Shown here: one piece after another, positions 10,242 to 59,856 of the stretch
Numbering within the stretch: the stretch's first letter is position 1
Layout of the letters: each line of letters opens with the position of its first letter
DNA from: a virus
Taxonomy: Duplodnaviria > Caudoviricetes
DNA: 64,000 bases
Virus record (IMG/VR): IMGVR_UViG_3300032281_000616
Span: 32,001-96,000 of that record
Direction: 5' to 3' (one strand)
Position numbers and translations under genes: made by a program
Notes under the pieces: model-generated
What the model saw: only the letters and a program-made list of their open reading frames with translations
Database searches by the model: none
Told to the model about the DNA's origin: nothing

Positions 10242-10508
10242 ATGAGTCTTAAAAAAAAAGATCAGGATGCTATTGCTAAGTTATATATAGAAGGATTCGA
10301 TGGAGCGTCAGATGGGCCAGAGGATTATGCGGTAGATGACGCAGTTAATGCTATTTTAAATACTTTGGAACGAACCATGCGAAGAGAAGACATCAAATCC
10401 ATAATGATGATAGTAACAGATCCCAAAAACTTAGAAGAGGTTCGTTATATTGTGGATAGCGAATTAGGTGGGAAATCTCCACAATATTACGATGATGACC
10501 AATATTAA
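10242..10508 (+). CDS. Acidic putative internal head protein
   Basis: Late motif upstream; leader ends LYIE. Confidence 0.5.
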   Translation: MSLKKKDQDAIAKLYIEGFDGASDGPEDYAVDDAVNAILNTLERTMRREDIKSIMMIVTDPKNLEEVRYIVDSELGGKSPQYYDDDQY

Positions 10509-10532
10509 TCTCTCAAAATACTAAATATACCT

Positions 10533-11039
10533 ATGAGTAATAGTAATCTATTCGCAAAACGTTTCTTCCAAGTTCTTAGAGAAGATGCAAGGGAACTTGA
10601 ACGCAAAGCTATGGAAGGAGTTCTAGATGATGGAACTAATCCAGAGGACTTTGAGGTTGATATGACACCTGATACCAATCAGGTAGTTGACCAAGTTTCT
10701 AAACAAGCTGCTGATGCCATGTCTCAGAAGAATCAACAAATGATTGATGAACTACAAAGTTGGATCGATGATATCGAATCCTTCTTGAAAAGAATCAATA
10801 GCGAAGACCCAAATTCAATTCAATCTCGTCTAGCTGCTGCTGAACCCGATACAGTCATGGATAAGATGAAGCAGTCTCAACAAACCAAGATTTCTCGTGT
10901 TGCTGCTGACTTAGCTTCCTTACATCAAAACTTCTTAGGGTTTATGAGTCAGACCGCCAATTCACGTTACAAATACGTAGCTATCCCTCTAGCATTCGGA
11001 TTAAGTTTAATGCAAATGGGTATGAATTATTTCTGTTGA
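10533..11039 (+). CDS. Helical putative internal head/scaffold-like protein
   Basis: TAAATA 10522-10527; leader ends VLRE; acidic helical sequence. Confidence 0.5.
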   Translation: MSNSNLFAKRFFQVLREDARELERKAMEGVLDDGTNPEDFEVDMTPDTNQVVDQVSKQAADAMSQKNQQMIDELQSWIDDIESFLKRINSEDPNSIQSRLAAAEPDTVMDKMKQSQQTKISRVAADLASLHQNFLGFMSQTANSRYKYVAIPLAFGLSLMQMGMNYFC

Positions 11040-11073
11040 TATCTCAAAATATCAAACCCGATTAAATTAATTC

Positions 11074-11715
11074 TTATAAGACTGCACTCAAGCCATTGGT
11101 GAGTTTATACATCATTTTTCTTTGATCTGTTGCCGATAGCGTAGCCTCGTAAACAAATCCGTCACTTCCAGTTATCTTAACTAGATATTTGTATGGATTG
11201 GAAGCAATATCTGCTACTTCTTGTCTGGATAAACCCAGATCATTAGAAGTATATCTAGTATCAACTAAGTTGTGGTCTTTATCAGAGAAGTCTAGTGGTA
11301 ATTGAGCCTCTGTTTGCTTTATATCTCCCCAAGCAACTCTACCAACGTTCATTACACATTCAATCTGATTTGGATCAAATACCAATTTACCATTATCGGT
11401 AATATCTTTCAAATCAGGAGTTATGGTGGATAACTTTGTTGAGTAATATGGATGTCCGTCTCGCAAACATTTGATCAATGCTCTGATATCGTATGTTTTA
11501 TTGTCGATGACAACTTTACCGCATGTATTATTACACATGCCACTATCGAAGAGAACCTTTCTTGGTAGAGTATATCTACCTGAATTGTAAGGCTTAGTCT
11601 GTAAACGAAGACCACCCTTTACTGTTGTATCTAACACAAATCTTTGTTTAAGATGTTCTAGGGTGAACATCGGTGTATTTCTATCTGTTTTCATATCGAA
11701 ATTATAGTAACACAC
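11074..11715 (-). CDS. Hypothetical early protein (likely start 11694)
   Basis: ORF preceded by a TTGACT/TACTATAAT promoter-like motif at 11701-11731. Confidence 0.55.
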   Translation of the reverse strand: MCYYNFDMKTDRNTPMFTLEHLKQRFVLDTTVKGGLRLQTKPYNSGRYTLPRKVLFDSGMCNNTCGKVVIDNKTYDIRALIKCLRDGHPYYSTKLSTITPDLKDITDNGKLVFDPNQIECVMNVGRVAWGDIKQTEAQLPLDFSDKDHNLVDTRYTSNDLGLSRQEVADIASNPYKYLVKITGSDGFVYEATLSATDQRKMMYKLTNGLSAVL

Positions 11716-11727
11716 CTCTCGGTAAAG

Positions 11728-12810
11728 TCAACCCTTCGAGAGAAGAATTTTTATTTTCATAATAGCCGACTTTCCACACTCTGAATTCTTTTTTATCCAA
11801 GCTGGAGACACTTGATCCAACCCACACGCGACACAAACCTCATTTAAGTCTTTGTATTTCTTTCCCCAAATCTCAGGCCAAATGAATACACATTCCCCAG
11901 CCTGTAATAATGATAATGTTTTCTCTCTGGATGTCTCATCTATCCACTGCGAGTCCAAAACCCATATCTTATCAAACAATTTCAGAGATTCCATCTGATC
12001 CTTCTGAGTCTTTGTTAGAGTGAATCCCTTACCCTTATTGATCCCAGCTACACCAAGACCATTCTTAACGAAGAAAGAATCAATTGGACCCTCAAATAGA
12101 AAAACTGTATCCAGATTAGGATCAACCTTATCTATACCGTATAATGTTTTATCTGCATTAAGCTTAGAAAGGTAGGATGGGTTATCATCCCAATCAAATA
12201 GTTTGCGTGTCTGGTAGAAGACGATATCCCCTTTCTCGTCCTTGAATGGTATCACTAGACGCTCAGGCTGAAACTTGTCTTTCAAGCTGATATAGAGGGC
12301 ATCTGGACGGTTTATAGCGGTGTCTAGTCGCCTCTCTTTGATATAGTCCAGAGCAAACTGCACTCTGCTATTGGTTTTGTAAAAATTAACCTGATTCGGA
12401 TCAAAAAGATTGATAGAATCTACTGGAAGAGTCTCAACTTTTAATTTAGGAATATCATCTTCAAAGAATGTATCACTATATCCAAAATCTCCTTTATCTA
12501 ATTCATCACATAGTTCTTTATGTGTTATACCAGATACTTCTCTGATCCAGTTGTATGTGGATAGATTACTTCCACAATTGAAACATGATATATTGCCCCC
12601 GTCTGGATCATACCAACATCTTTTCTTTCTTCCCCAAGAGGTTCCTTCTCGACATATAGGACAACATGAGTTGTATTTTCCAGACGCCTTATTATAGACT
12701 ACTTTGTAACCCAGTTCATAAAATTTAGATACAACATAGTCAACAGGGAGATTAAAATCAAAGCTTGCTTTCTTTTTTGAATCGAGCGTTGGTAATTTTT
12801 TTAATCTCAT
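11728..12810 (-). CDS. gp61: DNA primase, T4 gp61-like
   Basis: Zn finger CPIC..CFNC; RLVIPF; TOPRIM FLFEGPIDS and VLDSQWID. Confidence 0.9.
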   Translation of the reverse strand: MRLKKLPTLDSKKKASFDFNLPVDYVVSKFYELGYKVVYNKASGKYNSCCPICREGTSWGRKKRCWYDPDGGNISCFNCGSNLSTYNWIREVSGITHKELCDELDKGDFGYSDTFFEDDIPKLKVETLPVDSINLFDPNQVNFYKTNSRVQFALDYIKERRLDTAINRPDALYISLKDKFQPERLVIPFKDEKGDIVFYQTRKLFDWDDNPSYLSKLNADKTLYGIDKVDPNLDTVFLFEGPIDSFFVKNGLGVAGINKGKGFTLTKTQKDQMESLKLFDKIWVLDSQWIDETSREKTLSLLQAGECVFIWPEIWGKKYKDLNEVCVACGLDQVSPAWIKKNSECGKSAIMKIKILLSKG

Positions 12811-13045
12811 CTTTTTCCGCTTTTGATGGTTGTGGGTCTACTAAATCGAGTATACCATTCTTAACTCCAAAGTCAAAATCCTTTTTAGAAATCCATCGAA
12901 TGTCCATTTTTCCATCAAAAATATCACAGAAACCATATGTGTCTCCATGTTTTTTAACAAAAATTATAGTATGGCCTTTGTATTGACCATCTAAGACGCC
13001 ATAAGTTTTACCAAACTCTAAATCCTTTTTAAAAAATTGAATCAT
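12758..13045 (-). CDS. Hypothetical protein
   Basis: 95 aa ORF overlapping its neighbours' start/stop codons. Confidence 0.55.
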   Translation of the reverse strand: MIQFFKKDLEFGKTYGVLDGQYKGHTIIFVKKHGDTYGFCDIFDGKMDIRWISKKDFDFGVKNGILDLVDPQPSKAEKDEIKKITNARFKKESKL

Positions 13046-13335
13046 TCCATTCGTTCGTTCATAAACTTACTAACACTCTGCATGAATAAATCATCGAGTG
13101 CAGCTTTTTCCATTTTTTCCTTATAGATAGTCATATTGATCGGATTTCCATCTAGATCATAACCCATCAATTTAAAACATGTTAAAAACTCTCCTAGAGT
13201 GGATATCATAGCTTTGTTTATCTGGACTTTACTTGGAACTTTTCTTTTTTCCTTCAATCTAGTTGTGAGTGCTTCTCGAAGAATATTAGTTATTTCTTCA
13301 TCTGTGAACTCTTCGGGAATTTCTTCATCCTTCAT
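13042..13335 (-). CDS. Hypothetical protein
   Basis: 97 aa ORF in operon-like packing. Confidence 0.6.
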   Translation of the reverse strand: MKDEEIPEEFTDEEITNILREALTTRLKEKRKVPSKVQINKAMISTLGEFLTCFKLMGYDLDGNPINMTIYKEKMEKAALDDLFMQSVSKFMNERME

Positions 13336-13343
13336 TCAATTAT

Positions 13344-13679
13344 TTAACTCTTTTTCTCAAAAGAACAACCCTCTGCCTTTTGCGGGATTCCTCTCTCGAT
13401 CAAATTAGTTATAATAACCTCCATAGACTTAGTTTTGAGATTGAAGTTCTTGATGAATTTATTTCCACCATCATTAAACTCAAAGGCTACTTCTCCCTTA
13501 TCATCTTTATTTTCGTAACAAGTAATGATCAATGATACCCCACCCGGATCGACCATAACAGTCCATCTTCTTGGATCTAGAATCCCATAATCTTTAAAGA
13601 GTCTGATGGTAACGAATCCAGAATCTCTCAATCTTTTAATAAAGTAACTTCCTGTAGTAATTTTATTTTTATTTGTCAT
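13344..13679 (-). CDS. Hypothetical protein
   Basis: 111 aa ORF in operon-like packing. Confidence 0.6.
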   Translation of the reverse strand: MTNKNKITTGSYFIKRLRDSGFVTIRLFKDYGILDPRRWTVMVDPGGVSLIITCYENKDDKGEVAFEFNDGGNKFIKNFNLKTKSMEVIITNLIERGIPQKAEGCSFEKKS

Positions 13680-13965
13680 ACTTATATATTTCTAATTTAA
13701 TATATTCCATAACTTCTGGAGAAACTGCTATCATCCAAACAAAAGGCAATTTTTCATTACACCAAACACCCACATGCATATCCCCACCCGATATATTTTG
13801 ACTGTCCAACTTCCACACATAATTATTTTCTATATCTGAAAAATGTTCGATCCAAAATTCCGGTATCGGTAATGTATCCAAATGAACTGTTAATATTGAT
13901 GGTTTTCCTTTTTCTTTGGCATCTTTAAAAATGCGTTCAACGTAATTTGTAGGGTCTTCTCTCAT
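13669..13965 (-). CDS. Hypothetical protein
   Basis: 98 aa ORF; start overlaps the stop of the upstream endonuclease. Confidence 0.55.
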   Translation of the reverse strand: MREDPTNYVERIFKDAKEKGKPSILTVHLDTLPIPEFWIEHFSDIENNYVWKLDSQNISGGDMHVGVWCNEKLPFVWMIAVSPEVMEYIKLEIYKYDK

Positions 13966-14768: not shown

Positions 14769-14781
14769 TAATGTATTTAAC

Positions 14782-15967: not shown

Positions 15968-15968
15968 A

Positions 15969-16970: not shown

Positions 16971-16986
16971 GTCTTCAGATGAAAAT

Positions 16987-19291: not shown

Positions 19292-20178
19292 AAACTCGAA
19301 AGATTCGTAGTGAATCCTAAAAACTTTTCAGTCATTTGACCACCCGATGCATACTCACCCCCTCCACCATCACATAAATTTTCTGCCATATAAACAATAT
19401 CAGCAGGTGATCCTAGAGGTTTTCGGAAAGAGATGAACTTCGTGTCGGGATTGACCACGATGATAACATCAGCTTTGTGATTGTCAATCAATTCCTTCGC
19501 TATTTCGTTCACTGAGAGCTTGGAGAACGCTGCCAGCACCTTCCAACCCTTGAATTCACCAGAATATAGGTCTATTGTCGAGACTTCTTTCTCGATTTCT
19601 TTAAAAAATCCTTCAGCTATATTAATCTCCGTATCAGTGAAACCATCAAATCCATCAAAGAATCTATCCACAAACTTATAAAAGCTTCTGTAACCAGATC
19701 TACGATAAATTGCATTTAAATACTTGGATTCTTCGTGTTTTAAAAGATATTCATTGTAATCATCAACATAAACCAGTAGTTTTTTAACATTTACCGAGAA
19801 TTCTCTGATCTTTTTAAACTTTTTGTAGATTAATTTGGAACAAGATGAACATTCTTCTGTAATTAAAGTAGAGTCATAGGCTGTAAGCTTCTCTCCACGG
19901 TCTGAAATGATGACCAAACGAGGATCATCGATCTTATTGAGTAGTTTTTGATCAATAACCATACCCACAACAAAGACTTTATCATAATTTTCTAGATTAG
20001 TCTTGGCCCAAGTAGTATAATTTTCCTCAAATTTACCAAAGAAGCATGATTGATATTCAAATTCTTGAAAAACTTGTCCAAGTAAGATTACTGAACAGGC
20101 ACCATCAAGGTCTGAATTCGACCAAATAAATATACGACTACGCACGTCGATATTTACATCGTTATTCATATATGTCAA
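19288..20178 (-). CDS. DHH/DHHA1-family phosphoesterase-like protein (degenerate motifs)
   Basis: SDLDGACS motif I; C-terminal GGGGEYASGG DHHA1-like motif; no DHH triad visible. Confidence 0.7.
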   Translation of the reverse strand: MTYMNNDVNIDVRSRIFIWSNSDLDGACSVILLGQVFQEFEYQSCFFGKFEENYTTWAKTNLENYDKVFVVGMVIDQKLLNKIDDPRLVIISDRGEKLTAYDSTLITEECSSCSKLIYKKFKKIREFSVNVKKLLVYVDDYNEYLLKHEESKYLNAIYRRSGYRSFYKFVDRFFDGFDGFTDTEINIAEGFFKEIEKEVSTIDLYSGEFKGWKVLAAFSKLSVNEIAKELIDNHKADVIIVVNPDTKFISFRKPLGSPADIVYMAENLCDGGGGEYASGGQMTEKFLGFTTNLSSL

Positions 20179-20516
20179 TCTAATTTTTTACTTAACCTGT
20201 TTCTCAATCCCATCGCTTCCCTTTTACTTTTTTCTCTCCTAAAGTTAGGATATACTGCATTATAAGCCAAGTCTACTTCCTTTTTTAAGTCTTCGACATT
20301 TATACTGCCACCGTAAACCATAAGTTTTAATCTATGTAATGATTTCCACGCTTCTTGTAAATCAGAAAAAGGAATTTCAATCCCATCCTCTACTTGATTA
20401 AGTCCACTGCCATCTGGAGCAGAAATGATTCCACCATGCCCAACAATTGATACATCATTATTTTCTAATATAGAACCGTATACCGTCTCCAAATTTATTC
20501 TATCGATTTTTTCCAT
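20175..20516 (-). CDS. Putative internal head protein
   Basis: TAAATA (minus 20522-20527); leader ends SILE. Confidence 0.5.
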   Translation of the reverse strand: MEKIDRINLETVYGSILENNDVSIVGHGGIISAPDGSGLNQVEDGIEIPFSDLQEAWKSLHRLKLMVYGGSINVEDLKKEVDLAYNAVYPNFRREKSKREAMGLRNRLSKKLD

Positions 20517-20537: not shown

Positions 20538-20783
20538 TTAGTCCAGTTGTTTAAACGCTCTTACAATCGCATCCGTATCACATTCGTAAATTCCAGAAGA
20601 ATTCACATTATTGAGTTCTACGATTTTCCACCAATCTCCAACCAATCCAAGATCTAGCACAAAAGCGTTGTCAATTGAACCAAACATCTTAACCATTCTC
20701 ACACATTCATGAAAAACGTCCTCATGGGGTTCCACTCTATAATGATGAACCTCCCTATTTACGATTTCATTCATATATGTCAA
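20538..20783 (-). pseudogene. Possible C-terminal fragment of an R2K-clade ATP-grasp protein
   Basis: AFVLDLG..WKIVELNNVNSSGIY resembles the ATP-grasp C-terminal D/ExN motifs; no N-terminal part; begins at the end of the ART-like gene. Confidence 0.4.
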
Positions 20784-21144
20784 CTATCACATCGGGAGAA
20801 ATAGTTCCAGCATATTGATAGGTATCACCACTCAAATTATTATCATCTATTTCCAAGAGAGCCGGGTCTAATTTACTGATGTCTATTTTCAATATTACAA
20901 TTAAATCTAACCAATCTTCATCAACTATATCTGATGTTTCAGCATAAGATTCTGCCACATTTGGATCATCCGACAAATACACGACATCTGGAGAAGAGTC
21001 ATCCCAAAATTTATTGATCCCACCTCGCAAGCCAGATTGTTTGATCTTACTTAATAACGGTTTATAAGTAGCGTGATATAAATAATCCGGTAAGTTTATA
21101 TACATATTTTCATATATAAGTTTAATATCTTTTAAATATTTCAT
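20767..21144 (-). CDS. ADP-ribosyltransferase-fold protein (H-x-T type; KptA/DarT/PARP-like)
   Basis: YLYHAT..IKQSGL..VYLSDD..AESYA..IVILKID; own TAAATA (minus 21150-21155). Confidence 0.6.
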   Translation of the reverse strand: MKYLKDIKLIYENMYINLPDYLYHATYKPLLSKIKQSGLRGGINKFWDDSSPDVVYLSDDPNVAESYAETSDIVDEDWLDLIVILKIDISKLDPALLEIDDNNLSGDTYQYAGTISPDVIVDIYE

Positions 21145-25578: not shown

Positions 25579-26304
25579 ATGACAGCAGAAACAGTTCTCT
25601 TTGGATATTTTGGGTCCAAGACTAGAATAGCATATAAATACCCAAAACCAATTTACGACACAATCATTGAACCTTTCGCGGGAGCGGCTGGATATTCATG
25701 TTTATATCCAGAAAAAAATGTTATTTTATATGAAAAGGATGAAATTATTGCTGGTGTTTTAGATTTTCTTATAAAATCAGAACCAGAAGATATCATGAAT
25801 TTGCCCCTGATTGCTCCGGGTGAAAGTGTGGATGATTATAATATTTGTCAGGAGGCGAAGTGGGCTATTGGTTACTGGTTAGCATCTGCAAAACAAAATC
25901 CCAATAAAAGATTATCTAAATGGGCTACAGAAAAAAGAATTTGGCCTGATTTGACTCTTAATTTTTGGGGAACTGGCTGTAGGGAAAGACTAGCGAAAAC
26001 AGTTTCTAAGATTGGGCATTGGAAAGTTTATCATGAATCTTGGGAGAATTCTGAAAGACATACTGAACCTGCAACTTGGTTCATTGATCCACCCTATATC
26101 AAAGAAGGAAAATGGTATAGGAAATCGAATAAACACATAGATTACGAAAAATTGGGTGAATGGTGTAAAACCAGACCGGGACAAACGATTGTTTGTGAGA
26201 GTAATGGAGCATCTTGGCTAGATTTTTCTGATCTATGCGAATTGAAAGGTGTTGGTAAAGGTAGAAAGCGTTCTACTGAAGTTATTTGGACACGAAACGA
26301 CTAA
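25579..26304 (+). CDS. dam: DNA adenine methyltransferase (D12/Dam class)
   Basis: YFGSK, IEPFAG (motif I), IDPPY (motif IV); TAAATA at 25567-25572. Confidence 0.85.
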   Translation: MTAETVLFGYFGSKTRIAYKYPKPIYDTIIEPFAGAAGYSCLYPEKNVILYEKDEIIAGVLDFLIKSEPEDIMNLPLIAPGESVDDYNICQEAKWAIGYWLASAKQNPNKRLSKWATEKRIWPDLTLNFWGTGCRERLAKTVSKIGHWKVYHESWENSERHTEPATWFIDPPYIKEGKWYRKSNKHIDYEKLGEWCKTRPGQTIVCESNGASWLDFSDLCELKGVGKGRKRSTEVIWTRND

Positions 26305-26312
26305 ATAGTATC

Positions 26313-28019
26313 ATGAATTTTGATTATTTCGTAGAACGTGCGGATATTTTTACCGAGATGGCTCGCGCAACATCTATTTTTGGAAATTTTCCAGAAGTTA
26401 GAGATGCATATGTTTCATTATACGCAAATATTAAAAATAGTGGAGACGTTAATCCATCACAAACCAGTCAAATAAGAAACCGATTGTATAATTTCACCGA
26501 AACATTTTTAAATAGACAAGATGAAAGTGTTATGAATTATTATAAATCTATAGCCACGAATAGCAATGCTCGTTTTGCGAATTGGGCAAAGATCATGGAT
26601 ACACTTTTAAACGAAGGTAAAATTGATTCTAAAGAATTAATATCTTTCTGGAACTCTATTTTTGAGGATAAAGCGGAGGAATCAACCACAGAAGATGGAA
26701 GTGATTTAGATTCGAAGATGCTTGATTATATATCATCAGATGATAGTGACGAGGTAGAAAGATTAAACTCCAATCTTCGTATAGGTGTCAATCGTAGGAT
26801 GAAAGAATTGACTAGTTCTGGTACATACCCGATGTCATATCTTCAATATACTAAATTGACATCTTATCTTGAACCTAGACTTCGTAAAGCATTATATGAA
26901 TCTAGAAAACTTAAAAAAACAAACAATCCAGAATCTCAAACAGAAGCATCCAAATCCGATCTGGAAAATCCTTATGGTGATGTTCAGGGATGGATCGAGG
27001 ATGCCGCAGAAACATTAAAAGAAGGAATTTTATCATATAAGGAATTATATGATTCTGGTGAAATTGAAATGGATGAAATTGTCGATAATTCTGGTCGTCC
27101 AGATAAATTAGCTCAGATTTTGGTGATGTGGAAACGAGAGAATTTTGAAAAGTCACTAAACGATATCGTCACATCATTCGCCAGTCTTCAAAATAAACCA
27201 TCTCCAGAAAAATTCATGGAGAAAATGGTTAGTTTATCTGATAAAATGGCTGATTCTGGGAATAAATCCGCATCCGCTTTATTCATGGCTCTTGGAAGAG
27301 AGTTTAAAGAATTATATGAAACCGAAGCACCTGAAGATTATACTGAAACCGATGAACAGCCTTATGCTGGCTTTGATCTAAGAGTTTTAAGAAAAATATT
27401 TCAAGGGGATGGGGGGGAACTATTTAAAGCTTGGTACGAATTTCGTAAGGCTTTACAAGAATTTAATTTAGAAAGATTAGACTTTAGAAAATCTAATAAT
27501 TTAATGGATGCTAAGGAGAAATTGAGAGCATTTGCTTCTGGTGAAAATATTTCTAAATCTCCCGATTCCGGTTTAACAAAGGCTATTATTAGACAAAAGG
27601 CAGTTATCGCTAATATGCAAGATGCTGGTCAAGACACAACAAAGGAAGAACTTCGTCTACAAAAAATGGAAGCTAGTTTGGGTAAAGAGCAATCTCCCGA
27701 ACCAAAGCAACAAAAGAATCCTTATCAAAAAACAATTGATGATTTACAAATCAAGATTCAAAATGCTGAAGAGCAATTGAAATATGCTGAACCTGAATAT
27801 GCAACACAATTAAAACAAAGTATTGCTCGTATGAACGCCGCCTTAGAATCAGCTTATCAACAGGCATCAGATTGGCAACCTGTTCAAGAATCAGTATTAA
27901 GTTATATGACCGAGCAAGTAAATAGGGATAATAAATTCTCTAAACAAAAGGGTCAATTTGTAGATAGAGGATTTAAGAAAGTCAAAAATTACAACCATTG
28001 GATGATCGTAAATGAGTGA
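26313..28019 (+). CDS. Large helical putative internal head protein (start reassigned from 26286 to 26313)
   Basis: TAAATA 26302-26307 lies 5 nt before ATG 26313; leader ends FTE-MAR; coiled-coil C-half. Confidence 0.55.
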   Translation: MNFDYFVERADIFTEMARATSIFGNFPEVRDAYVSLYANIKNSGDVNPSQTSQIRNRLYNFTETFLNRQDESVMNYYKSIATNSNARFANWAKIMDTLLNEGKIDSKELISFWNSIFEDKAEESTTEDGSDLDSKMLDYISSDDSDEVERLNSNLRIGVNRRMKELTSSGTYPMSYLQYTKLTSYLEPRLRKALYESRKLKKTNNPESQTEASKSDLENPYGDVQGWIEDAAETLKEGILSYKELYDSGEIEMDEIVDNSGRPDKLAQILVMWKRENFEKSLNDIVTSFASLQNKPSPEKFMEKMVSLSDKMADSGNKSASALFMALGREFKELYETEAPEDYTETDEQPYAGFDLRVLRKIFQGDGGELFKAWYEFRKALQEFNLERLDFRKSNNLMDAKEKLRAFASGENISKSPDSGLTKAIIRQKAVIANMQDAGQDTTKEELRLQKMEASLGKEQSPEPKQQKNPYQKTIDDLQIKIQNAEEQLKYAEPEYATQLKQSIARMNAALESAYQQASDWQPVQESVLSYMTEQVNRDNKFSKQKGQFVDRGFKKVKNYNHWMIVNE

Positions 28020-28449
28020 ATTTGATACATTATATAGAGAATTAATGATAGAAATGGCTAGACCAGCAACTTTTCTAGCATTCGATCAACAATTAAACAA
28101 TGCTTATGCTCAATGTTTGAAAATTATGAGAATGTATGGAGAAACAAACGCTCCAACTTTTGCTATTTGGGATTATATTTGGAGATGTTTACCATCCGAG
28201 GTCAAAGACGTTTACGGAGAAGAAAGAAAAAAACATAGTTCTCCAACATTAAAACATTTTATGTGTGATCTATTAAAAAACAAGCTGAACCCCCAAATTA
28301 GAGTTCAGCTTGTTGAAGATTTGACAAATGAATCTAAAATTAGATCGTATGTCAATAGACCTCTAAACGGTAGAGGTAATAGGGCTAAGGGTGCAGCTAA
28401 TCAATCAGGATTATCTCCTTGGTCATTAGATGATGTTTCTTCAATGTGA
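28012..28449 (+). CDS. Putative internal head protein
   Basis: Leader ends MIE-MAR, the same motif as the upstream gene. Confidence 0.5.
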   Translation: MSEFDTLYRELMIEMARPATFLAFDQQLNNAYAQCLKIMRMYGETNAPTFAIWDYIWRCLPSEVKDVYGEERKKHSSPTLKHFMCDLLKNKLNPQIRVQLVEDLTNESKIRSYVNRPLNGRGNRAKGAANQSGLSPWSLDDVSSM

Positions 28450-43196: not shown

Positions 43197-43451
43197 ATGA
43201 GCCTAAGATTGTCAAGTTTAGAAGAGAAAAAGATTGCCGATCTTTATGATCAGATTCTTGAAGACATGAGTGCTGGTGAGGGTGGCATGTTTGGCACTCC
43301 ACAAGACTCTGTGGATGATCTTGGTGAACCTAATGGGGACAATTATGCAGCGGGCGATACACGCATTCCTAAATCGATTTTCGAAGGTGATATTTTATCC
43401 AGAAATGGTTTGGTGAAGAAAAAGAAGAAAAAATCGAAAAGAAAAGCTTGA
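43197..43451 (+). CDS. Small putative internal head protein
   Basis: TAAATA 43184-43189; leader ends QILE; acidic middle, basic tail. Confidence 0.55.
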   Translation: MSLRLSSLEEKKIADLYDQILEDMSAGEGGMFGTPQDSVDDLGEPNGDNYAAGDTRIPKSIFEGDILSRNGLVKKKKKKSKRKA

Positions 43452-43798: not shown

Positions 43799-45199
43799 TT
43801 CATCATTAACATCATTTATTATATTTTCATAAAAAGAAACATCAATAGATTCCGTATAACCATCACTTAATTCATCCTTAGTAAAAAATTTAAAATTGTT
43901 TTTATATTTTTTCTTTATAAATCTTTCTAATCTCAATATATCAACCCCAGAAGCCTTAACATTATAAACCGTATCAAACTTTGAATTTGATAATCTACAT
44001 TGCGCCAATTTTCTCTTATGTATATTATTTGTTATTCCAATTTTTAGACCTTCTTTTCCACTAAAATGAGTGATTTTGTGTATATAGAAAAATCCATCTT
44101 TGCTTTGATTGAATCCCTTTGTACAACAGAATGGACATCCAGATTTACTGTTTATAACACAATCAATTTTAGTGAACCATGTGTTTTCACAAACATCACA
44201 TCTAAACTTTGCTTTTTGTTTAACTCCGGGTGGATTATGATCCAATAATGTTATTTCTTTTCCTTTCAATCTTTCGCATATATCTCCATATGTCAACTTC
44301 GCCTTACCTATACATTTTCCACATTGATATGATGGATTTCTTAAAATTATAGAAGGGGTGATACATATATGATGTCCATTTGGACAGGTCATTTTAATTT
44401 TTTTTGTTGAGTTTTTTATAATTTCAGTGGAATCTACAGAAAACCCGCGAAGTTTTAAGAAATATTTATATTGCTCGTCTGTTGGCCTCCATCTGTTGCC
44501 CAAACTTTTATCTGTAAAATTGCATAGTATGCATCCATTAGAACTCAGCAATTTGGTTGGAGCAGTTTCCCAACTATATCCACAAGAACTACAGGAAACG
44601 TTCCATTTTTCACAATTTTTATTCACGATATTAATATGATTGGTCAAACAATGATCGGATACACATTGTTCACAAAAAATATTTTTCAAAAATTTATCAG
44701 ACTGGAATAGGTTTTTATGACCTTTCTGACAATTTGATGATATGAATGATTCATCAATTGAAAAATTATAAAAGTTTAGATTCTTAAGCTTTTTTATATT
44801 TTTATTGACTTGTTTAGAATTTATTTTCTCTTTATGTTTATTGGTTCTACATATTTTACACCCTATTGTGGATTCTATTTTAAAAATATCATATATTCTT
44901 TTAAATGTTTCAGTTTCACAATGTAAACATTTAAGTTTGTGTTTTTTTAAAGTTGGATTATAATTCCCAACCAATTGAAATCCATAACTATTCAATTTTT
45001 TATTCATCGTTTCTGTGTTCAAACAATCACCACTACAGAATTTACAACTTCTTTTTCTATTAACAACGGAATACGGGACATTTTTATAAATGTGTCCATT
45101 ATCACACATTAATAGGCATGATTTGTAAAACTTTTCATAATTTGAATGTATTCCCCACCCAAATGGTTTCAATTTGATGTTGGCTTCTTCTAAATTCAT
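43784..45199 (-). mobile_element. Zn-ribbon-repeat endonuclease with C-terminal GIY-YIG-like (T5orf172-type) domain
   Basis: Six Zn units alternating CxxGH..CxxC and CxxC..CxxC; GFFYIHK..LKIGIT..R. Confidence 0.8.
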
Positions 45200-45591
45200 A
45201 TATCTTTTCTATAAAATTTTCCGTTTATATTATTATTATAATAATTATCTTTCTCCAAAACCTCGTTTATGAATAAATATTTTAATTCATAATATGTCAA
45301 TTGTTTTTCAAAATTACATAAATGTAATATTTCCCTCTTTATAATATCCCCGGTTGATATATCAATCTTTAATTCTTCATTTGAACCACAATATTTTTTC
45401 CAATCGCTTTCTCTCTTGATTCTTTTTGTTTTACTCCCTATCTTTTTTTTGATAATGTGGTATAAAAATTTTTTCCCAACATATGTTTTATTTTTTGTAA
45501 TATTTGTTATTTTATAAACAAAACCAAAACAATTTATAGGAAAGTCTTCCAAGGTTTTAAGCTCAACGTCATTAAAGATCCAATCTGTCAT
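45196..45591 (-). CDS. Small GIY-YIG nuclease-like protein
   Basis: GFVYKITN..TYVGKK, DWKKYCGS, KREIL, YYNNNING; TAAATA (minus 45597-45602). Confidence 0.75.
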   Translation of the reverse strand: MTDWIFNDVELKTLEDFPINCFGFVYKITNITKNKTYVGKKFLYHIIKKKIGSKTKRIKRESDWKKYCGSNEELKIDISTGDIIKREILHLCNFEKQLTYYELKYLFINEVLEKDNYYNNNINGKFYRKDI

Positions 45592-45714: not shown

Positions 45715-45960
45715 ATGAAAAATACAAATAGGGTATATAGGAAACGACTCCATAAACAAATTTATAGGAAAAGATTTGGTGGATCTCAACCATCTCAACA
45801 ATTTCGATGGAAATGGAAAATAGCACTATACAAAACATTATTTTATAAAACACCAAATGTTGGACTTTGCTCGGAAATTGTGGGAATACAGCCCATGGAT
45901 GATCCAATTGGTCAAGCCTTTTACCTAAATTTATATGAACCATTACGAGATCAAAACTGA
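45715..45960 (+). CDS. Small basic protein carrying a T4 gp23 major-capsid-like motif
   Basis: LCSEIVGIQPMDDPIGQAFYL resembles gp23 (A)xDIxGVQPMxGPTGxIF. Confidence 0.5.
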   Translation: MKNTNRVYRKRLHKQIYRKRFGGSQPSQQFRWKWKIALYKTLFYKTPNVGLCSEIVGIQPMDDPIGQAFYLNLYEPLRDQN

Positions 45961-46474
45961 GGAAAATTATACAAAAATCATTTTTCATGACGAACGTATA
46001 ATTTTTACTGATATCGATACAGTTTTTAGAGAGACTAATATATTTTTCGCTAAAATATTAAGAGCAATGTTTATTGATGTTACATTCGATTTTTCTAAAA
46101 GCTATAATAAAACAATATACTCACATGCTTTCCTAAAAATAGTTTGCGAACATATTATAAGTCAAGAATCTAATTACAGATTATGTTTTTATAGCAATTC
46201 TCTAACTAAGGATAAATTCAGAAATTCCCTATTAAGAAAATTAAAATCAATCTTTGGATTCAAAATCTTAGAAGATGTTATGGATTTTTCTGAAGTTATT
46301 GAAAAAGTCGAAACAAACGATGCTGGATTGACTCCGAGATTAGAAATATTCTTTCAAAAAGACACCAAACCGAAGAGTTTTAAACATATTAAAAAATATC
46401 TAGAAAAAACTGGATTGAAAGATATGGGAACGCATTTTTATGATGTCGCCAATAAAATGAGCCTGATGTCATAA
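45935..46474 (+). CDS. Hypothetical protein
   Basis: 179 aa ORF. Confidence 0.6.
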   Translation: MNHYEIKTEENYTKIIFHDERIIFTDIDTVFRETNIFFAKILRAMFIDVTFDFSKSYNKTIYSHAFLKIVCEHIISQESNYRLCFYSNSLTKDKFRNSLLRKLKSIFGFKILEDVMDFSEVIEKVETNDAGLTPRLEIFFQKDTKPKSFKHIKKYLEKTGLKDMGTHFYDVANKMSLMS

Positions 46475-46482
46475 ATATATGT

Positions 46483-46932
46483 ATGAGTCGTTTTCTTTCA
46501 ATCCTAGAAGAATATAATCCAGAAAATACAGAAGATCCTAAATGGGATCTCATTGATTTTTTAAAATCTAAAGATGTTAACGTAAGATTAGATAGGTTGT
46601 CTGGTATGATTTTTGTAGATACTGGGAGTAAGGAAATACCCCTACAAGTATCAGGCATGGATAATGAAGAAGAAGCTGAAAGTATCGAGGCTGGAGTAGG
46701 AACATACAAGGTTGATCAAGAAGTTGAAAAGTTGGGTAATACTGCTGCATCTGGATTGAAAGGTGTAGCTGGTAGAATGCTTGGAACATCTGCTCAGAGA
46801 GCTAAACAAGCGATGAAAAAACGTCAACAATTAGCTGGTCAAGCTGTTAAAACTTACGAAGATTCTACTAGAGAACTAGAGCGATCATTACAACAAGCTA
46901 GAAGAGCTGGACCAATCCAAGTTAACTATTAA
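46483..46932 (+). CDS. Putative internal head protein
   Basis: TAAATA 46472-46477; leader MSRFLSILEE. Confidence 0.55.
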   Translation: MSRFLSILEEYNPENTEDPKWDLIDFLKSKDVNVRLDRLSGMIFVDTGSKEIPLQVSGMDNEEEAESIEAGVGTYKVDQEVEKLGNTAASGLKGVAGRMLGTSAQRAKQAMKKRQQLAGQAVKTYEDSTRELERSLQQARRAGPIQVNY

Positions 46933-46935
46933 TTT

Positions 46936-47295
46936 ATGAAATCAAAAACTTTAAGGTTGATTGATACCTGTCTAAAAATCATCAAAGAAGAGGGTGAAAT
47001 GCCTGATATGAGTCAAGAACAGCCATCTGGAGATGCTCAAGCTGCACCACAACCTCAAGAGGAGATAATGCCTCTGTCATCTGCTGGGGAAGATAAGTAT
47101 ATTGCTGATATGATTGATGCTGCTTTATTCGAGCCTTCTCCAGAGCAAGCTAATACTTTACTCAATCTCCAGAGTCAAATGCAAATGAAAAAATATAAGA
47201 ATTCTAGAGAAGAAATTTTACCAAGTGTTCTAGGAATTATATCATCTTCAACATCTGGTGGAGATCTCAGAAAACAACTTAACAAAATCAACTAA
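46936..47295 (+). CDS. Putative internal head protein
   Basis: Leader ends IIKEE; Gln/Pro acidic linker. Confidence 0.5.
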   Translation: MKSKTLRLIDTCLKIIKEEGEMPDMSQEQPSGDAQAAPQPQEEIMPLSSAGEDKYIADMIDAALFEPSPEQANTLLNLQSQMQMKKYKNSREEILPSVLGIISSSTSGGDLRKQLNKIN

Positions 47296-47303
47296 ATAAT
47301 ATA

Positions 47304-47747
47304 ATGGGTAAGAAATTTAAGAGAGAAGAAAATGATGTAATCTGGGAAAGCTATACAACTCCGAATGATCAGAAATATGCTGATTATTATAATGACTACA
47401 ATACATTCGAAGATGAAGATGCAGAAGCTATCATTACAATGGAAAAACCTTTAATGGTTGAACCAGAGATGGGAGATGATGATATTTTCGAGGATGATGA
47501 TATTTTCGAGGATGATGATATTTTTGAAGACGAGGATGATGATCTAGATAATGAGATCATTGTTAAAGCTCTACGTAAATTGATCAAACGCGCTGATATT
47601 CTTCTAAATCATTGTGAAAGTGATAAACTAGATACTTGGATGGTTGCTAAAATCATCAAGGCTGAAGATTATATTTCAGATGTCTGGAATGAATTGGATG
47701 ACGTTGCGGATTTTGCTAATGATGGATTTGAAGATGTGAAAATTTAA
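47304..47747 (+). CDS. Highly acidic putative head protein
   Basis: TAAATA 47293-47298; leader ends IWE; DDDIFE x3. Confidence 0.55.
   Translation: MGKKFKREENDVIWESYTTPNDQKYADYYNDYNTFEDEDAEAIITMEKPLMVEPEMGDDDIFEDDDIFEDDDIFEDEDDDLDNEIIVKALRKLIKRADILLNHCESDKLDTWMVAKIIKAEDYISDVWNELDDVADFANDGFEDVKI
47475..47528 (+). repeat. 18-bp tandem repeat x3 (GATGATGATATTTTCGAG)
   Basis: Two identical copies (47475-47492, 47493-47510) and one variant (47511-47528); encodes DDDIFE. Confidence 0.9.
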
Positions 47748-48187
47748 TGATCAGTTTTAAGCAATTTTTTATGGAAAAACTCATAGTAGGACTCGAAGAG
47801 ATTCTTACTTTGGATGGCATTGGACCCATAAAATCTAAGCTTGATTCTGGAAATGGTGCATTCAATGTTCTTCATGGTGAGGATATTGAAAGTGATGGAA
47901 AACTAGTCAGATTCACTACTGAAGGTGGTATAAGCGTTGAGAAAGAATTAAAGGACACAATTACGATTAATCTAGGTGCAGGTAATAAAGAAGAACGTCC
48001 TGTGGTTTTATTTGATGTGAAATTTGGAAACAAGGTCTTTAAAGATGTTCCATTTTCTATTGGTAATAGGTCTGAGAATGCTCATAAAATATTAGTAGGG
48101 AAGAATTTCATAAGTCAAAACCTAAATGCACTAATCGATGTTTCGCTAGTGGATGTAGCCGGAAAAAATTTACAAGTAGATATATGA
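47747..48187 (+). CDS. Retropepsin-like aspartic protease (putative ATP-dependent Zn protease/RimK-associated family)
   Basis: IKSKLDSGNG catalytic D-S-G; ERPVV; ILVGKNFI; capsid-targeting-like leader MISFKQFFME. Confidence 0.75.
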   Translation: MISFKQFFMEKLIVGLEEILTLDGIGPIKSKLDSGNGAFNVLHGEDIESDGKLVRFTTEGGISVEKELKDTITINLGAGNKEERPVVLFDVKFGNKVFKDVPFSIGNRSENAHKILVGKNFISQNLNALIDVSLVDVAGKNLQVDI

Positions 48188-48888
48188 AAAATAATATTAA
48201 ATATCCCAAAGAAGCTGGTGTATATAAATTGACGTGTATCAATAACGGAAAAATTTATATAGGTAAATCTGTCAATTTATATTACAGATTGAGTTGTCAT
48301 AAAAGTTGTGAAAAAAAATCTAATGGTCGTTATTATTTTGAAAATGCTATAATAAAACATGGGTGGGATTCGTTTAATATTGAAATATTAGAAATCATTC
48401 AAGATTTCAATAAATTGAAAGATAATGATATCCTTTTAGAAAAGGAGAAGTATTACATAGAATTATTTGATTCTACAAATCCTAAAAATGGTTATAATAT
48501 ATGTAAATCTTCTAATGATAGAACAGGGGTTAAAAGTTCCGAGGAAACTAAAAGAAATATAAGTTTAGGACAAATGGGTAGAAAACATTCAGAAGAAACC
48601 AAGGAAAAAATTAGACAGTCGAAATTGGGTAAACGTGGAAAACCTCACACTGAGGAACATAAAGAAAAAATGAGACAACTCAATCTAGGTAAAAAAATGT
48701 CCATCGAATCTAAAGAAAAACTTAGACAAATTAGATTAGGGTCAAAACATTCTGAAGAAGCTAAGGCTAAGATGAGTATGTTTAGGAGGGGAAATAGATA
48801 CGCTCTAGGATTTAAACATTCCGATGAAACTAAAGAAAAACTGAGAGCGGCTAAACACAAAAAAGATTATCTAATATTACACTCTTAG
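48184..48888 (+). mobile_element. GIY-YIG/NUMOD3 homing endonuclease inserted at the 3' end of the protease gene
   Basis: GVYKLTC..IYIGKS; KHSEETK repeats; close paralogue of 13965..14768. Confidence 0.9.
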
Positions 48889-48938
48889 ACGTATCACTGG
48901 TTGATGTAGCTGGAAAAAATATGGAGGTTGATTTATGA
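48882..48938 (+). pseudogene. Displaced duplicate 3' end of the protease gene
   Basis: Encodes LLDVSLVDVAGKNMEVDL*, versus LIDVSLVDVAGKNLQVDI* at 48131-48187. Confidence 0.85.
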
Positions 48939-49489
48939 AAAAGGATATTAGAAAATACACACAGAGAGAACTTTTAGCTGAAGGATTTTGGAGCAACCTA
49001 GCACAAAAATCTGTCCAAGGTGTTAAAAATACCGCTAGTTTAGCAGGTAGAACTGCAAAAGGGGCATTAGCAATTGGAAAATTTGCCTCTGAAAAAATGG
49101 CTCCTGAATTATATAATCCGATTAAAGGTGTAGTGGATTCTATCAAAGATTTAAATAAACGATTGATTAAAGCAACTACTCCTGAAGCTACATATATTGA
49201 AAACAAATTAAAGAATCAAGGATATTCTTTAGTGGATAATAACGTGTATAAAGTAAAAATGCAACCGGGAGATGAGAAACAATTATATAAAGTTTTGGTC
49301 AAAATTCGACCAGAATTTATTTCAGTTGGAGAATCAAATCCTCAAAAAATATTCTTAGTTGATAAAGATGGAAATATTGTTCGAGATTTGAGCGCAAAAG
49401 ACGCAGTAACAGGTGGCAGGAAACCCAAAAAGAAGAAAAGAAAAAGGGTTTTGTCTACTTCGGCAAATAATCCACAATCAACTCCTTGA
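48935..49489 (+). CDS. Putative internal head protein
   Basis: Leader ends LLAE-GFW; Ala/Gly/Lys helical segment. Confidence 0.55.
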   Translation: MKKDIRKYTQRELLAEGFWSNLAQKSVQGVKNTASLAGRTAKGALAIGKFASEKMAPELYNPIKGVVDSIKDLNKRLIKATTPEATYIENKLKNQGYSLVDNNVYKVKMQPGDEKQLYKVLVKIRPEFISVGESNPQKIFLVDKDGNIVRDLSAKDAVTGGRKPKKKKRKRVLSTSANNPQSTP

Positions 49490-49783: not shown

Positions 49784-49784
49784 T

Positions 49785-50902: not shown

Positions 50903-50910
50903 ATTTGATG

Positions 50911-52455: not shown

Positions 52456-52456
52456 T

Positions 52457-54719: not shown

Positions 54720-54721
54720 TT

Positions 54722-55357: not shown

Positions 55358-55361
55358 TATT

Positions 55362-56719: not shown

Positions 56720-57390
56720 AAAATAAAATAATAATAGGTGAAACGTGTCTTTTAGATAAACAGTTGAGAAGATGTGGTATAATAAATGGACCACACGGAT
56801 TATTCGATAACGTATTGATTAATTTGGATGGTGTGAAATATATAATAGAAAATGATTTCAGTTATATTTTAGATCGGAATTTTTTAATAAACGAATCGTA
56901 TAATTATTATCCTAAACATAATATAATTTATAGTAAATGGATTAACAAAAAGTATTCAATAGATCGAGATAATATATATTCTTGGAATGTTATGTCATTT
57001 TTTCATTTAGATAATATAAATAATTTAGATAGTTTGTGTAGAAAATTGAACAGAACCAAATCTTGGTTAGAAGATTCTAATGATGTTGTGATGTTCTACT
57101 ATTATAGAAGATCCGATAAATATAATACACAGAAACATGAAAACAAAATAATAAATTTTTCTAATTTTATAAATAAAAAATACAATAAAACAATCAAAAT
57201 AGTTAATTTTAATAATTTGATAGGTGAATCACATTATGATATTAAAATGTTTGAAGAATTGATATTATCGATTGATATATATTCTAAAAATTGTTGGACT
57301 GATATAGATGATAATTGGGATGCACATACTGATAATTTTTTATTTGATAAAATATTCAATTGTCAAAAATTTCTAGAATTTGTAAAATGA
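56716..57390 (+). CDS. Hypothetical protein in the glycosylation island
   Basis: 224 aa, very Asn/Ile-rich. Confidence 0.5.
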   Translation: MKNKIIIGETCLLDKQLRRCGIINGPHGLFDNVLINLDGVKYIIENDFSYILDRNFLINESYNYYPKHNIIYSKWINKKYSIDRDNIYSWNVMSFFHLDNINNLDSLCRKLNRTKSWLEDSNDVVMFYYYRRSDKYNTQKHENKIINFSNFINKKYNKTIKIVNFNNLIGESHYDIKMFEELILSIDIYSKNCWTDIDDNWDAHTDNFLFDKIFNCQKFLEFVK

Positions 57391-58160
57391 AAGCATTGGT
57401 AATATGTCCAACCATAGGTAGGGTTCCTTACCTAAACAGAATGCTATCATCTTTCACGAATCAAACTTACGATGATAAACATTTGGTCGTAGTTAATGAT
57501 GACAAACATATTCAAATCTGTTGTGATAGATCGGATGTTACAGTCATAAATTGTAACAAGAGGATGACGATATCCGATAAAAGAAATATAGCAATCTTAG
57601 CCAAAGATGCTGATATAATATTTCCTTTAGATGATGATGATATATTTACTCCAGATAGAATATCTAATCATATGAATCAGTATGATAAAGAAGATATTAA
57701 CGGATATAGAAATTTAGAATCTTATATAATTTACGGTGATGTTTTTAAAAAATCGAATTCTTGTCCACACAACGCGATGTCTTTTAAGAAGAGTGAGTGG
57801 TTCCGGGTTGGTGGTTACAAAAATGATATCAGAATATATCAAGATATTGAATTACATGATAGTATCACTAAGTTGAAGGTTGAAAGAGATTCAAAAAATA
57901 AAGATTTTATATATCATTTCGGTGGAGTTAATTATCATTCATGTTGTTTTACACCGGATGAACACGAGGCTAAAACAGGAGAAATTGCTTATAAACAGTT
58001 GGAAAAAATGAATTTACTTTATAGAAAATATTCGATCATCCCAGATGACGAAGAATATGATAAATGTATGAAATTGAAGAAAATGTTTGACTTTGGGGAA
58101 GAAGAGATTACAATAAAGCATATTTCCGATGGAAAAATAGATATATCACATTTATTATAA
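57360..58160 (+). CDS. Glycosyltransferase family 2
   Basis: ICPTIGR, VVNDD, ISDKRN, LDDDD. Confidence 0.85.
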   Translation: MSKISRICKMKALVICPTIGRVPYLNRMLSSFTNQTYDDKHLVVVNDDKHIQICCDRSDVTVINCNKRMTISDKRNIAILAKDADIIFPLDDDDIFTPDRISNHMNQYDKEDINGYRNLESYIIYGDVFKKSNSCPHNAMSFKKSEWFRVGGYKNDIRIYQDIELHDSITKLKVERDSKNKDFIYHFGGVNYHSCCFTPDEHEAKTGEIAYKQLEKMNLLYRKYSIIPDDEEYDKCMKLKKMFDFGEEEITIKHISDGKIDISHLL

Positions 58161-58161
58161 T

Positions 58162-58506
58162 ATGTTCGACGCTGTAAATTATCTACTACACGAAAAGAAT
58201 AAAACCGAATTGGATGCTGATCTGATTCAGGAATTTAATCCACATATAACTACGAAAACCTTTTCATTCTACGATTCTGGTAAGTATTGTGATTATATTA
58301 ATGATACTTTGAATGTATACTCCAATCTATTCAAGGAAAAGGACGAACAATTCAAATTCTTCGATTCTATCATTCCAAAATTGAAGAGGAGAAAATCAGA
58401 ATATATCAAGAGAAAATATAAGGAAGAAGAAAAGTCAGAAATTCAGCATATACCAGAATTCATGTCTAAGAGAGAATTGGAATATTATGAACAAGGAAGA
58501 AATTAA
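58162..58506 (+). CDS. gp62: Clamp loader small subunit, T4 gp62-like
   Basis: FNPHI..FSF, LN, QFKFFDSIIPK.KRRKSEYIK pattern. Confidence 0.6.
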   Translation: MFDAVNYLLHEKNKTELDADLIQEFNPHITTKTFSFYDSGKYCDYINDTLNVYSNLFKEKDEQFKFFDSIIPKLKRRKSEYIKRKYKEEEKSEIQHIPEFMSKRELEYYEQGRN

Positions 58507-58771
58507 AGCTAAGAGAATCGAATTGAGGACACTAGAATCGGAGGAAAGATCTAAAATATTGCACCCTCATATTGAAAAATATCACACATTAGAGAAAAAA
58601 TTACAAGATGAATGTGAGGAAAGTGGTCACTATTTTCAAATATGTTACTATAATTGGGGGAGTTTTGATGATAGGAAATACACACATGAATCAATGTTGT
58701 GTAAATATTGTCATAAACGCATTTTCGTTCCACACGACGAAGTTGACAATGTGAAAAGACAAAATAAATAA
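58487..58771 (+). CDS. Hypothetical Zn-binding protein
   Basis: CEESGH..CKYC. Confidence 0.5.
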   Translation: MNKEEIKAKRIELRTLESEERSKILHPHIEKYHTLEKKLQDECEESGHYFQICYYNWGSFDDRKYTHESMLCKYCHKRIFVPHDEVDNVKRQNK

Positions 58772-58777
58772 AGTCCT

Positions 58778-59209
58778 ATGCAAAGAGCAATTCACATCGA
58801 ACGAGATCCAATTTCAATTGACCACGCACCTGTTCAAAAATCACATATTGATCTCTCTGATCGATCTTTACCGAGTGATTTTGGATTAGATGATTACATC
58901 TTCTCTCAACTTCTCGATGATATTATTTTAGTTGAATATGCTGATATTGTTATGGACGAAGCTGCTGGTGATTACATTCTAAGAAAGGGTATTGCCATTC
59001 CAGTCAATCAAATTCACAATGCTTGGAGAAAGGGTAAGGTTGTTTTGACTGGTCCTCAAGTTCGTTGGGTTAATGTTGGTGACATTGTAGTTTTCCCGAA
59101 CAATATGGGAATCCCAATTACTAATCTAGAAGTAGAGGGTCATGGGACTATGAAGAACGGTCTATTCCTTAATGAGCAAAGATTGTTTGGTATTTGTAAA
59201 GCTAAGTGA
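58778..59209 (+). CDS. groES: GroES-like co-chaperonin
   Basis: DDIILVE..GIAIP..GKVVLTGP..VGDIVVF; TAAATA 58765-58770. Confidence 0.8.
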   Translation: MQRAIHIERDPISIDHAPVQKSHIDLSDRSLPSDFGLDDYIFSQLLDDIILVEYADIVMDEAAGDYILRKGIAIPVNQIHNAWRKGKVVLTGPQVRWVNVGDIVVFPNNMGIPITNLEVEGHGTMKNGLFLNEQRLFGICKAK

Positions 59210-59856
59210 TTATGAAAGACTACGACAAGACAACTCTGGGTGAATTATACGAAGATATAAGTCGTGGTAATTTCGATTGGGATTATTTATTCGAATCTGG
59301 AATGGGATCAGATTCAGTTTTGTTATGGGAAAGTTTGAAAAAAATATCCTCTGGTGAATCCGCGAATGGGACCGAGGATGTGTATGAGGTTGTATTGAAC
59401 AATGGTCAATCGTTTTATGTTTTTTTCAGTTTCTTAAATCCTAAGAAAACAAACGATACCATAATCAACAATACTTTAGCAAATAATAAAAATGATTCAC
59501 CCACCGAAGCGTTTCGCTTATATAATAAACATTTTTCAGATCTAAAACCTACCGACAGAATGTGTTATATATCTTTCAAAGATGAAAGAGGTCGTCAACA
59601 TACCACAGGAGAAGTTGGTTTAGCTGCAAAGGGGTTATTTTCTGGATTGAAGGGTGCTATGTTGGATAGCCTTTGGGGTGATTCCCAGAATCATATAAAT
59701 CTAAAGGCTATTTGTATAAAGGCAAATGGGAAAGATCCTTCAAGAGTAAGTCTTTTTAAAAAATTAATGGAGAAATATTTAGCGGATACTTACCCACATA
59801 TTATTATGGATTATAATTCTGATTCTCCGTTTGTATCCATCATGGCAACTAAATAA
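59206..59856 (+). CDS. Hypothetical protein, possible internal head protein
   Basis: Leader ends LYE; TGEVG..A..LF and SRVSLF motifs. Confidence 0.5.
   Translation: MIMKDYDKTTLGELYEDISRGNFDWDYLFESGMGSDSVLLWESLKKISSGESANGTEDVYEVVLNNGQSFYVFFSFLNPKKTNDTIINNTLANNKNDSPTEAFRLYNKHFSDLKPTDRMCYISFKDERGRQHTTGEVGLAAKGLFSGLKGAMLDSLWGDSQNHINLKAICIKANGKDPSRVSLFKKLMEKYLADTYPHIIMDYNSDSPFVSIMATK

Follow-up and report, generated by a model that had tools for sequence, protein, structure and literature searches.

A subset of 13 genes in a stretch of phage DNA (IMG/VR record IMGVR_UViG_3300032281_000616, bases 32001-96000; 64,000 nucleotides, hereafter the window) appears, with a probability that we put at about 60%, to belong to a clade-wide set whose products start with a leader of the type that targets the internal proteins of phage T4 to the capsid, M-x-x-aromatic-x-x-aromatic-hydrophobic-x-Glu. 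The 13 open reading frames (ORFs), named here by their left-hand window coordinate, had been singled out in an original prediction, which saw in their N-termini, each ending in hydrophobic-x-Glu, a dispersed family of T4-like capsid-targeting leaders. What survives of that claim is a narrower tag in the T4 register, found on many non-homologous and mostly late proteins of the clade; it is exact in 1/13 of the flagged ORFs and nearly so in about four. This narrower signature is genuine and strongly enriched. Judged by their sequences, 47747 is a certain member of the set and 46483, 26313, 28012, 10533 and 43197 are probable ones, to which at least six genes outside the window are added.

The viral record to which the window belongs is complete, with 202,205 bp and terminal repeats, and comes from an uncultured freshwater phage that is a distant relative of T4. 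Its DNA polymerase is about 30% identical to gp43 of T4-like cyanophages and pelagiphages, and a megablast search of 6 kb against cultured phages returned no match at the DNA level. Just past the window end lie genes for a gp23-type major capsid protein (MCP; PF07068, 285 bits) and, at genome 102380-103051, for an S77 prohead protease of the gp21 type (PF03420, 98.8 bits). Between them is a scaffold-like gene of 298 residues, identified from position and sequence character only, whose product has an N-terminus ending F-S-E at residue 9, where T4 gp22 has I-A-E. The predicted maturation site of the capsid protein is I-E-E, followed by A-G.

The T4 tag and the diversity of the internal proteins that carry it are textbook knowledge, and the capsid targeting sequence (CTS) of these proteins is reportedly the subject of Mullaney and Black 1996. 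In the T4 record, MKTYQEFIAE opens both IPII and IPIII, whereas IPI, which is cut 19 residues in, starts M-K-T-F-K-E-F. The CTS of IPI, IPII and IPIII is removed by gp21 (PMC9026906, PMC3012670), and mutagenesis of IPIII has assigned targeting to positions 4 and 7 of the ten-residue tag and processing to positions 8 and 10 (PMC9026906). Following this IPIII map, we set the register pattern as an aromatic residue at position 4, an aromatic at 7 and a hydrophobic at 8, and compared its frequency at N-termini with a column-shuffle null that retains their position-specific composition. The pattern is in excess in this genome and in three relatives (p<5e-5 for each of the three):

This genome (G000): 7 observed; 1.3 expected from internal density, 1.8 from the column shuffle; p=0.0014.
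G001 (MCP 87% identical to that of this phage): 10 observed; 2.2 expected; 0/20000 shuffles reach the count.
G006 (MCP 81% identical to that of this phage): 9 observed; 1.8 expected; 0/20000 shuffles reach the count.
G007 (MCP 75% identical to that of this phage): 10 observed; 2.2 expected; 0/20000 shuffles reach the count.

Two properties that played no part in the selection go with the pattern when the four genomes are pooled. Glu occupies position 9 or 10 in 19/35 carriers and in 210/1189 other genes (p=1.8e-6), and an own TAAATA promoter precedes 19/35 carriers and 268/1189 other genes (p=6e-5). The carriers change from genome to genome: 6/10 of those in G001 have no ortholog in this genome, and the majority of those in G006 and G007 have none in this genome or in G001. 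BLASTP detects no relationship among the tag carriers. Residue 8 is F or Y in most of them. The seven carriers of this genome, in genome coordinates, are:

Genome 79747 (window 47747), plus strand: exact register.
Genome 12939: exact register.
Genome 128208: exact register.
Genome 130119: exact register, a 254-residue ORFan.
Genome 130838, minus strand: an enzyme of the CCA-adding/poly(A) polymerase family, whose Pfam domain begins at residue 52.
Genome 132373, minus strand: a NUDIX hydrolase with a long N-terminal extension.
Genome 196721, minus strand: exact register.

Judged from promoter sequence, 6/7 of these carriers lie in late transcription units. Three of them sit in a run of four adjacent genes at genome 130119-134939 (window 98119-102939, outside the window), each with its own TAAATA: the 254-residue ORFan, the CCA-adding-family enzyme and the NUDIX hydrolase have the exact tag, and the fourth gene, a 574-residue ORFan, has only a looser Y-x-x-L-L-E-E leader. 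The NUDIX gene is the only one of the run with an ortholog in the sister genome G001. Tag-like leaders open both the genome 12939 protein and its ortholog in G001, although the two sequences align only from residue 12 in one and residue 70 in the other. Near matches in a shifted register include genome 21339, 107947 and 190980, together with window 26313, 28012 and 46483; the family of 190980 has the exact register in G006 and G007.

TAAATA stands exactly 5 nt upstream of the start codon in 45 genes genome-wide and 6-7 nt upstream in 17 more, among them the scaffold gene and many others in and around the head module; examples in the window, each 5 nt before a start codon, are 46472-46477, 47293-47298 and 26302-26307. 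By analogy with the T4 late promoter TATAAATA, whose spacing serves as a guide to the distance between TAAATA and AUG, late mRNAs should begin at or next to the AUG. The tag might then reflect not a protein signal but a constraint on the first codons of leaderless late messages, or a copied DNA cassette of promoter plus first codons. This fits the 5-nt spacing, with messages that probably begin at AUG, and the preference of AT-rich codons for K, F, I, N and Y. Yet the enrichment survives a null in which position-specific composition is retained; early genes are likewise leaderless, yet the register tag occurs in 0/41 of the early genes of this genome, defined as those with a AAACACTA-box promoter; and a Glu at constant spacing belongs to the signal. 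Synonymous codons also differ between the leaders, so that a recently copied cassette is rejected. We consider an origin at the nucleic acid level very improbable.

Some tag-bearing genes have no TAAATA. Upstream of two of these, at genome 12925-12938 and 197159-197172 (outside the window), a common string ACAGAAGA-[CT]-AC stands directly before the ATG, and may be another regulatory or ribosome-binding element.

Within the window, six flagged ORFs have the tag or are supported in other ways:

47747..48187, plus strand: retropepsin-like protein with the leader MISFKQFFME (F4, F7, F8, E10), the exact T4 register.
46483..46932, plus strand: 149-residue ORFan with its own TAAATA and a near-register leader (F4, I7, L8, E9).
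26313..28019, plus strand: 568-residue all-helical ORFan with its own TAAATA; leader F3, Y5, F6 ... I-F-T-E15, one residue out of register.
28012..28449, plus strand: 145-residue ORFan coupled to 26313; F4, L7, Y8, M-I-E14, then an M-A-R-P junction as in 26313.
43197..43451, plus strand: 84-residue late protein with a 22-residue leader ending I-L-E, a capsid-like segment and a polybasic tail.
10533..11039, plus strand: 168-residue late protein; orthologs begin M-x-K-[FY]-x-x-x-F-hydrophobic ... L-R-E (aromatics at 4 and 8).

By its sequence, 47747 is the strongest candidate of the 13. The original prediction called it a protease, and it does match the retropepsin-like family PF05618 (E 6.4e-6; 26.6 bits at a cut-off of 27), with the domain beginning at residue 14, directly after the leader. 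It contains a DSG motif of the D-S/T-G active-site type, and PF05618 is precomputed for 120/120 of its listed homologs. Its full-length homologs, 113 in number, have an aromatic at position 4 in 97% of cases and at position 7 in 97%, F8 in 96% and E10 in 96%, and vary at positions 2, 3 and 9. The start of 47747 overlaps the stop of the late gene 47304.

The other five have good partial or independent support. The leader of 46483, F-L-x-[IL]-[LIC]-E, is kept in eight relatives at 30-74% overall identity, and this protein matches no Pfam or PHROG family. It is the first gene of a block, 46483-49489, that is conserved in eight relatives and that in G001 has one further gene with a perfect tag; the block is reminiscent of the internal-protein loci known to vary in T-even phages (PMC9026906). 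In the family of 26313, an N-terminal end of about 18 residues and a C-terminal end of about 45 are invariant around a hypervariable middle: F3, D4, Y5, F6, V7, R9, E15, M16 and A17 are identical in 10 homologs, and the low-complexity helical middle is only 25-31% identical. An AlphaFold2 (AF2) model of 26313 (mean pLDDT 59.6) has the leader as a detached helix, residues 4-16, at low confidence, and an Atlas search with this protein found no match. The junction of 28012 is kept in one ortholog. For 10533, L-R-E is conserved in three relatives, and there is a weak PHROG match to PmgS-like head morphogenesis proteins (E 4e-4).

The support for 43197 comes from the capsid protein. Residues 21-62 of its family align by hhalign to residues 55-95 of the MCP family (probability 87%, E 3.7e-6), a segment made up of the predicted maturation site and the N-terminal arm of the capsid protein. 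Y17, I20 and E22 are invariant in seven relatives, and the polybasic tail is as expected of a DNA-associated internal protein. On these features 43197 could be a mimic of the N-terminal arm or a DNA-bound internal protein. That 43197 and 45715 are halves of a split gp24-like gene is ruled out, as 43197 is a stand-alone gene of 82-84 residues in every relative record that contains it. The 81-residue ORF at 45715-45960 lies beside a GIY-YIG-like gene (45196-45591, minus strand) and holds a 21-residue copy, 52% identical, of the conserved 'CGVQPM' segment of the capsid protein; a homing endonuclease may have carried it as a stranded fragment.

Seven flagged ORFs have a junction only or a loose motif only:

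47304..47747, plus strand: 147-residue acidic late ORFan with its own TAAATA; [VLM]-I-W-E junction, no aromatics at 4 and 7.
48935..49489, plus strand: 184-residue ORFan; leader of variable length ending in a conserved hydrophobic-L-x-E, then G-F-W.
46936..47295, plus strand: 119-residue acidic ORFan with I-I-K-E at residue 18.
59206..59856, plus strand: ORFan of 214-216 residues with L-Y-E at residues 12-14.
10242..10508, plus strand: 88-residue late ORFan with the loose motif Y-I-E only.
20175..20516, minus strand: 113-residue late ORFan, V-Y-G-S-I-L-E, loose motif only.
20767..21144, minus strand: 125-residue late protein with a minimal ADP-ribosyltransferase (ART)-like fold, as a lead only, and a loose leader.

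Much of the description on which the 13 ORFs had been grouped is accurate. All 13 starts and leader strings are present in the sequence as they had been given, with one refinement: the ORF at 59206 exists as written, and the ATG at 59212 is its likelier start. TAAATA lies 5-7 nt before the ATG in 8/13 and the remaining five lie behind a gene of this kind; the 13 are mutually unrelated by BLASTP; and Pfam and PHROGs searches give no family above threshold for 11/13.

The difficulty is with the shared mark itself. Hydrophobic-x-Glu in an N-terminal amphipathic helix is expected in about a third of proteins, and the 13 had been picked by eye, such that most of their leaders could be chance. Counted as a loose motif, [LIVMF]-x-E whose Glu falls at residues 8-25, it is present in 35-46% of genes of every class: 36/79 of those with a late promoter and 81/231 others (p=0.11), and 17/41 early-box genes (p=0.70 versus late). 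Internal 25-residue windows have it in 33% of cases. Within the window, 33/94 called genes have it, 20 of them unflagged and replication-module genes among these. Equal frequency in early genes had been named beforehand as one finding that would refute the family claim, and for the motif as it was then defined this is what the counts show; as a family mark, it is no commoner than chance. Three unbiased searches fared no better. A leave-one-out position-specific scoring matrix (PSSM) anchored on the Glu generalized poorly (late versus early p=0.24), enumeration of 3- and 4-position patterns of N-termini in a reduced alphabet left nothing after correction for multiple testing, and N-termini compared all against all by BLOSUM were no more alike than internal segments. 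Another motif, Y-x-x-[ILMV]-[ILMV]-E, showed 5-fold enrichment in this genome but was not replicated in G001 (p=0.16) and was dropped as a class.

Chance nevertheless accounts for part of the list only. It leaves unexplained the register-specific enrichment in four genomes, with its tie to Glu 9/10 and to late promoters, and the invariant leader of 26313, and we think it rather unlikely that most of the 13 leaders arose in this way. In T4, gp21 has 'very few apparent determinants' beyond L/I-x-E (PMC9026906), and because so short a site would discriminate weakly in T4 too, the missing enrichment of the loose motif reflects low power and not absence. Conservation bears on the same question: conservation of the N-terminal motif is complete in 16/26 occurrences in late genes compared with 3/18 in non-late genes (p=0.005) and with about 41% of internal occurrences (p=0.04).

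Applied to individual genes, these results divide the list. Aromatics at both 4 and 7 are absent from 9/13 of the flagged ORFs; 46483 and 28012 have F4 only, and 26313 is shifted by one residue. The [VLM]-I-W-E junction of 47304 is kept in eight relatives, and 47304 and 48935 are possible cargo candidates by their sequences. Weak candidates on the same footing are 46936 and 59206. The motif of 46936 is kept in 5/6 counted relatives, and its counterpart in G005 and in a near-duplicate locus (L012), with the start as called, begins directly with M-I-N-E and has no leader; the L-Y-E of 59206 is kept in its single ortholog, at 31% identity. Three more, 10242, 20175 and 20767, fit chance well: none has an ortholog in the five relative records G001-G005 or shows the tag signature, and 10242 and 20175 match no family in Pfam or PHROGs. 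The ART-like enzyme of the original prediction is 20767; it has no Pfam match, and its assignment is a lead from Atlas feature and structure neighbours (Arr, PARP, KptA and DUF952; cosine 0.91-0.92, TM 0.60-0.64). A 252-residue G001 protein with an M-K-F-D-L-L-V-E leader and a similar Y-H-G-T start is marginally similar to it (E 0.02). Beyond the supported subset, the leaders of the flagged ORFs are indistinguishable from chance hydrophobic-x-Glu.

Several points weigh against capsid targeting as the meaning of the signature. The loose motif is equally common in early genes, and neither the leave-one-out PSSM nor the N-terminal similarity scans reveal a broad family. At P3, two residues ahead of the Glu, the tag mostly has Phe or Tyr; T4 gp21 favours Leu or Ile there, and I-E-E is the site predicted in the capsid protein of this phage. 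The register pattern was written only after the N-termini had been seen, although it matches published T4 data and was replicated in three further genomes, and the compared genomes have some orthologous carriers, so that the pooled counts are not fully independent.

The aromatic residue before x-Glu would also fit another job, in which a real tag would dock the proteins on a membrane or a partner, mediate oligomerization or signal degradation and would not be removed by the head protease. However, the tag is very close to the leaders of T4 IPI and IPII/III, its carriers go with late promoters, and a protease of the gp21 type is encoded in the genome. The scaffold N-terminus, with F-S-E at residue 9 in parallel to T4 gp22, hints that Phe is tolerated at the processing site. 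We regard such another role as improbable. A tag serving as the substrate of a radical-SAM modifying enzyme is ruled out, as there is no radical-SAM gene in the genome.

With capsid targeting as the preferred reading, the analysis suggests that about ten unrelated, mostly late proteins per genome probably carry this label for loading into the capsid. TAAATA late promoters, 5 nt before the ATG, would ensure co-expression of the tagged proteins with the head genes. We infer the later steps from T4: the leader would dock the tagged proteins on the scaffolding core of the prohead (PMC5694885, PMC9026906), the gp21-type S77 protease would cut after the leader Glu, and the mature proteins would stay with the DNA in the capsid and enter the next host with it.

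Capsid-delivered phage proteins are typically first-strike factors for counter-defence or takeover. A more tentative extension, which we hold possible but not likely, is that phages of this clade pre-load their capsids with a kit of changing content, about ten enzymes and small proteins, among them the retropepsin-like protease, the CCA-adding enzyme, the NUDIX hydrolase and ART-like proteins, which would be injected to repair tRNA and disarm host defences before phage genes are expressed. As cargo, a late-expressed, tagged CCA-adding enzyme, NUDIX hydrolase or aspartic-protease-like protein would be out of the ordinary. Should the tag work as it does in T4, the proteins delivered with the DNA could be read from sequence in uncultured phages. 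The negative result matters too, in that hydrophobic-x-Glu by itself is unusable for calling cargo.

Three known systems invite comparison. In the giant phages phiKZ, 201phi2-1 and SPN3US, a gp21-like protease cleaves many of the head proteins behind a Glu (PMC5694885, PMC10052503), and SPN3US gp53 and gp54 have identical N-termini on mature parts that are only 34% identical (PMC5694885). The 26313 family is similar to that pair in its constant N-terminus and diverged middle. The giant-phage propeptides differ in being mostly longer than 100 residues, with the motif S/A/G-x-E, and were shown by mass spectrometry, whereas the leaders here are known from sequence. A second parallel is with T4 Alt, gp24, gp67, gp68 and gp22, whose short, heterogeneous N-terminal propeptides end in hydrophobic-x-Glu (L/I-x-E sites). 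The ORFs 47304, 48935, 46936 and 59206 could, from their junctions, belong to this class; sites of this type contain too little information for recognition by sequence and are here statistically indistinguishable from background.

The closest counterpart is the T4 CTS. The tag and the CTS both comprise about ten residues at the very start of the protein: positions 4 and 7 are aromatic, position 8 is hydrophobic and Glu stands at 9 or 10. Both are found on otherwise unrelated, poorly conserved proteins and go with late expression, here as read from promoter sequence; and both genomes encode an S77 protease, a gp23 capsid protein and a scaffold, the last putative in this phage. The differences are in scale, detail and content: about 7-11 carriers per genome here and three in T4; mostly Phe or Tyr at position 8 here and Ile in T4; and, among the carriers here, enzymes (the retropepsin-like protein, the CCA-adding enzyme and the NUDIX hydrolase) with a tag read from sequence alone. 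The interest of the comparison lies in this enzymatic cargo and in the great evolutionary distance from T4. The IPI start, M-K-T-F-K-E-F, is almost identical to several of the leaders here, and by sequence the tag seems to have been retained both in T4 and in a lineage with a DNA polymerase of only about 30% identity.

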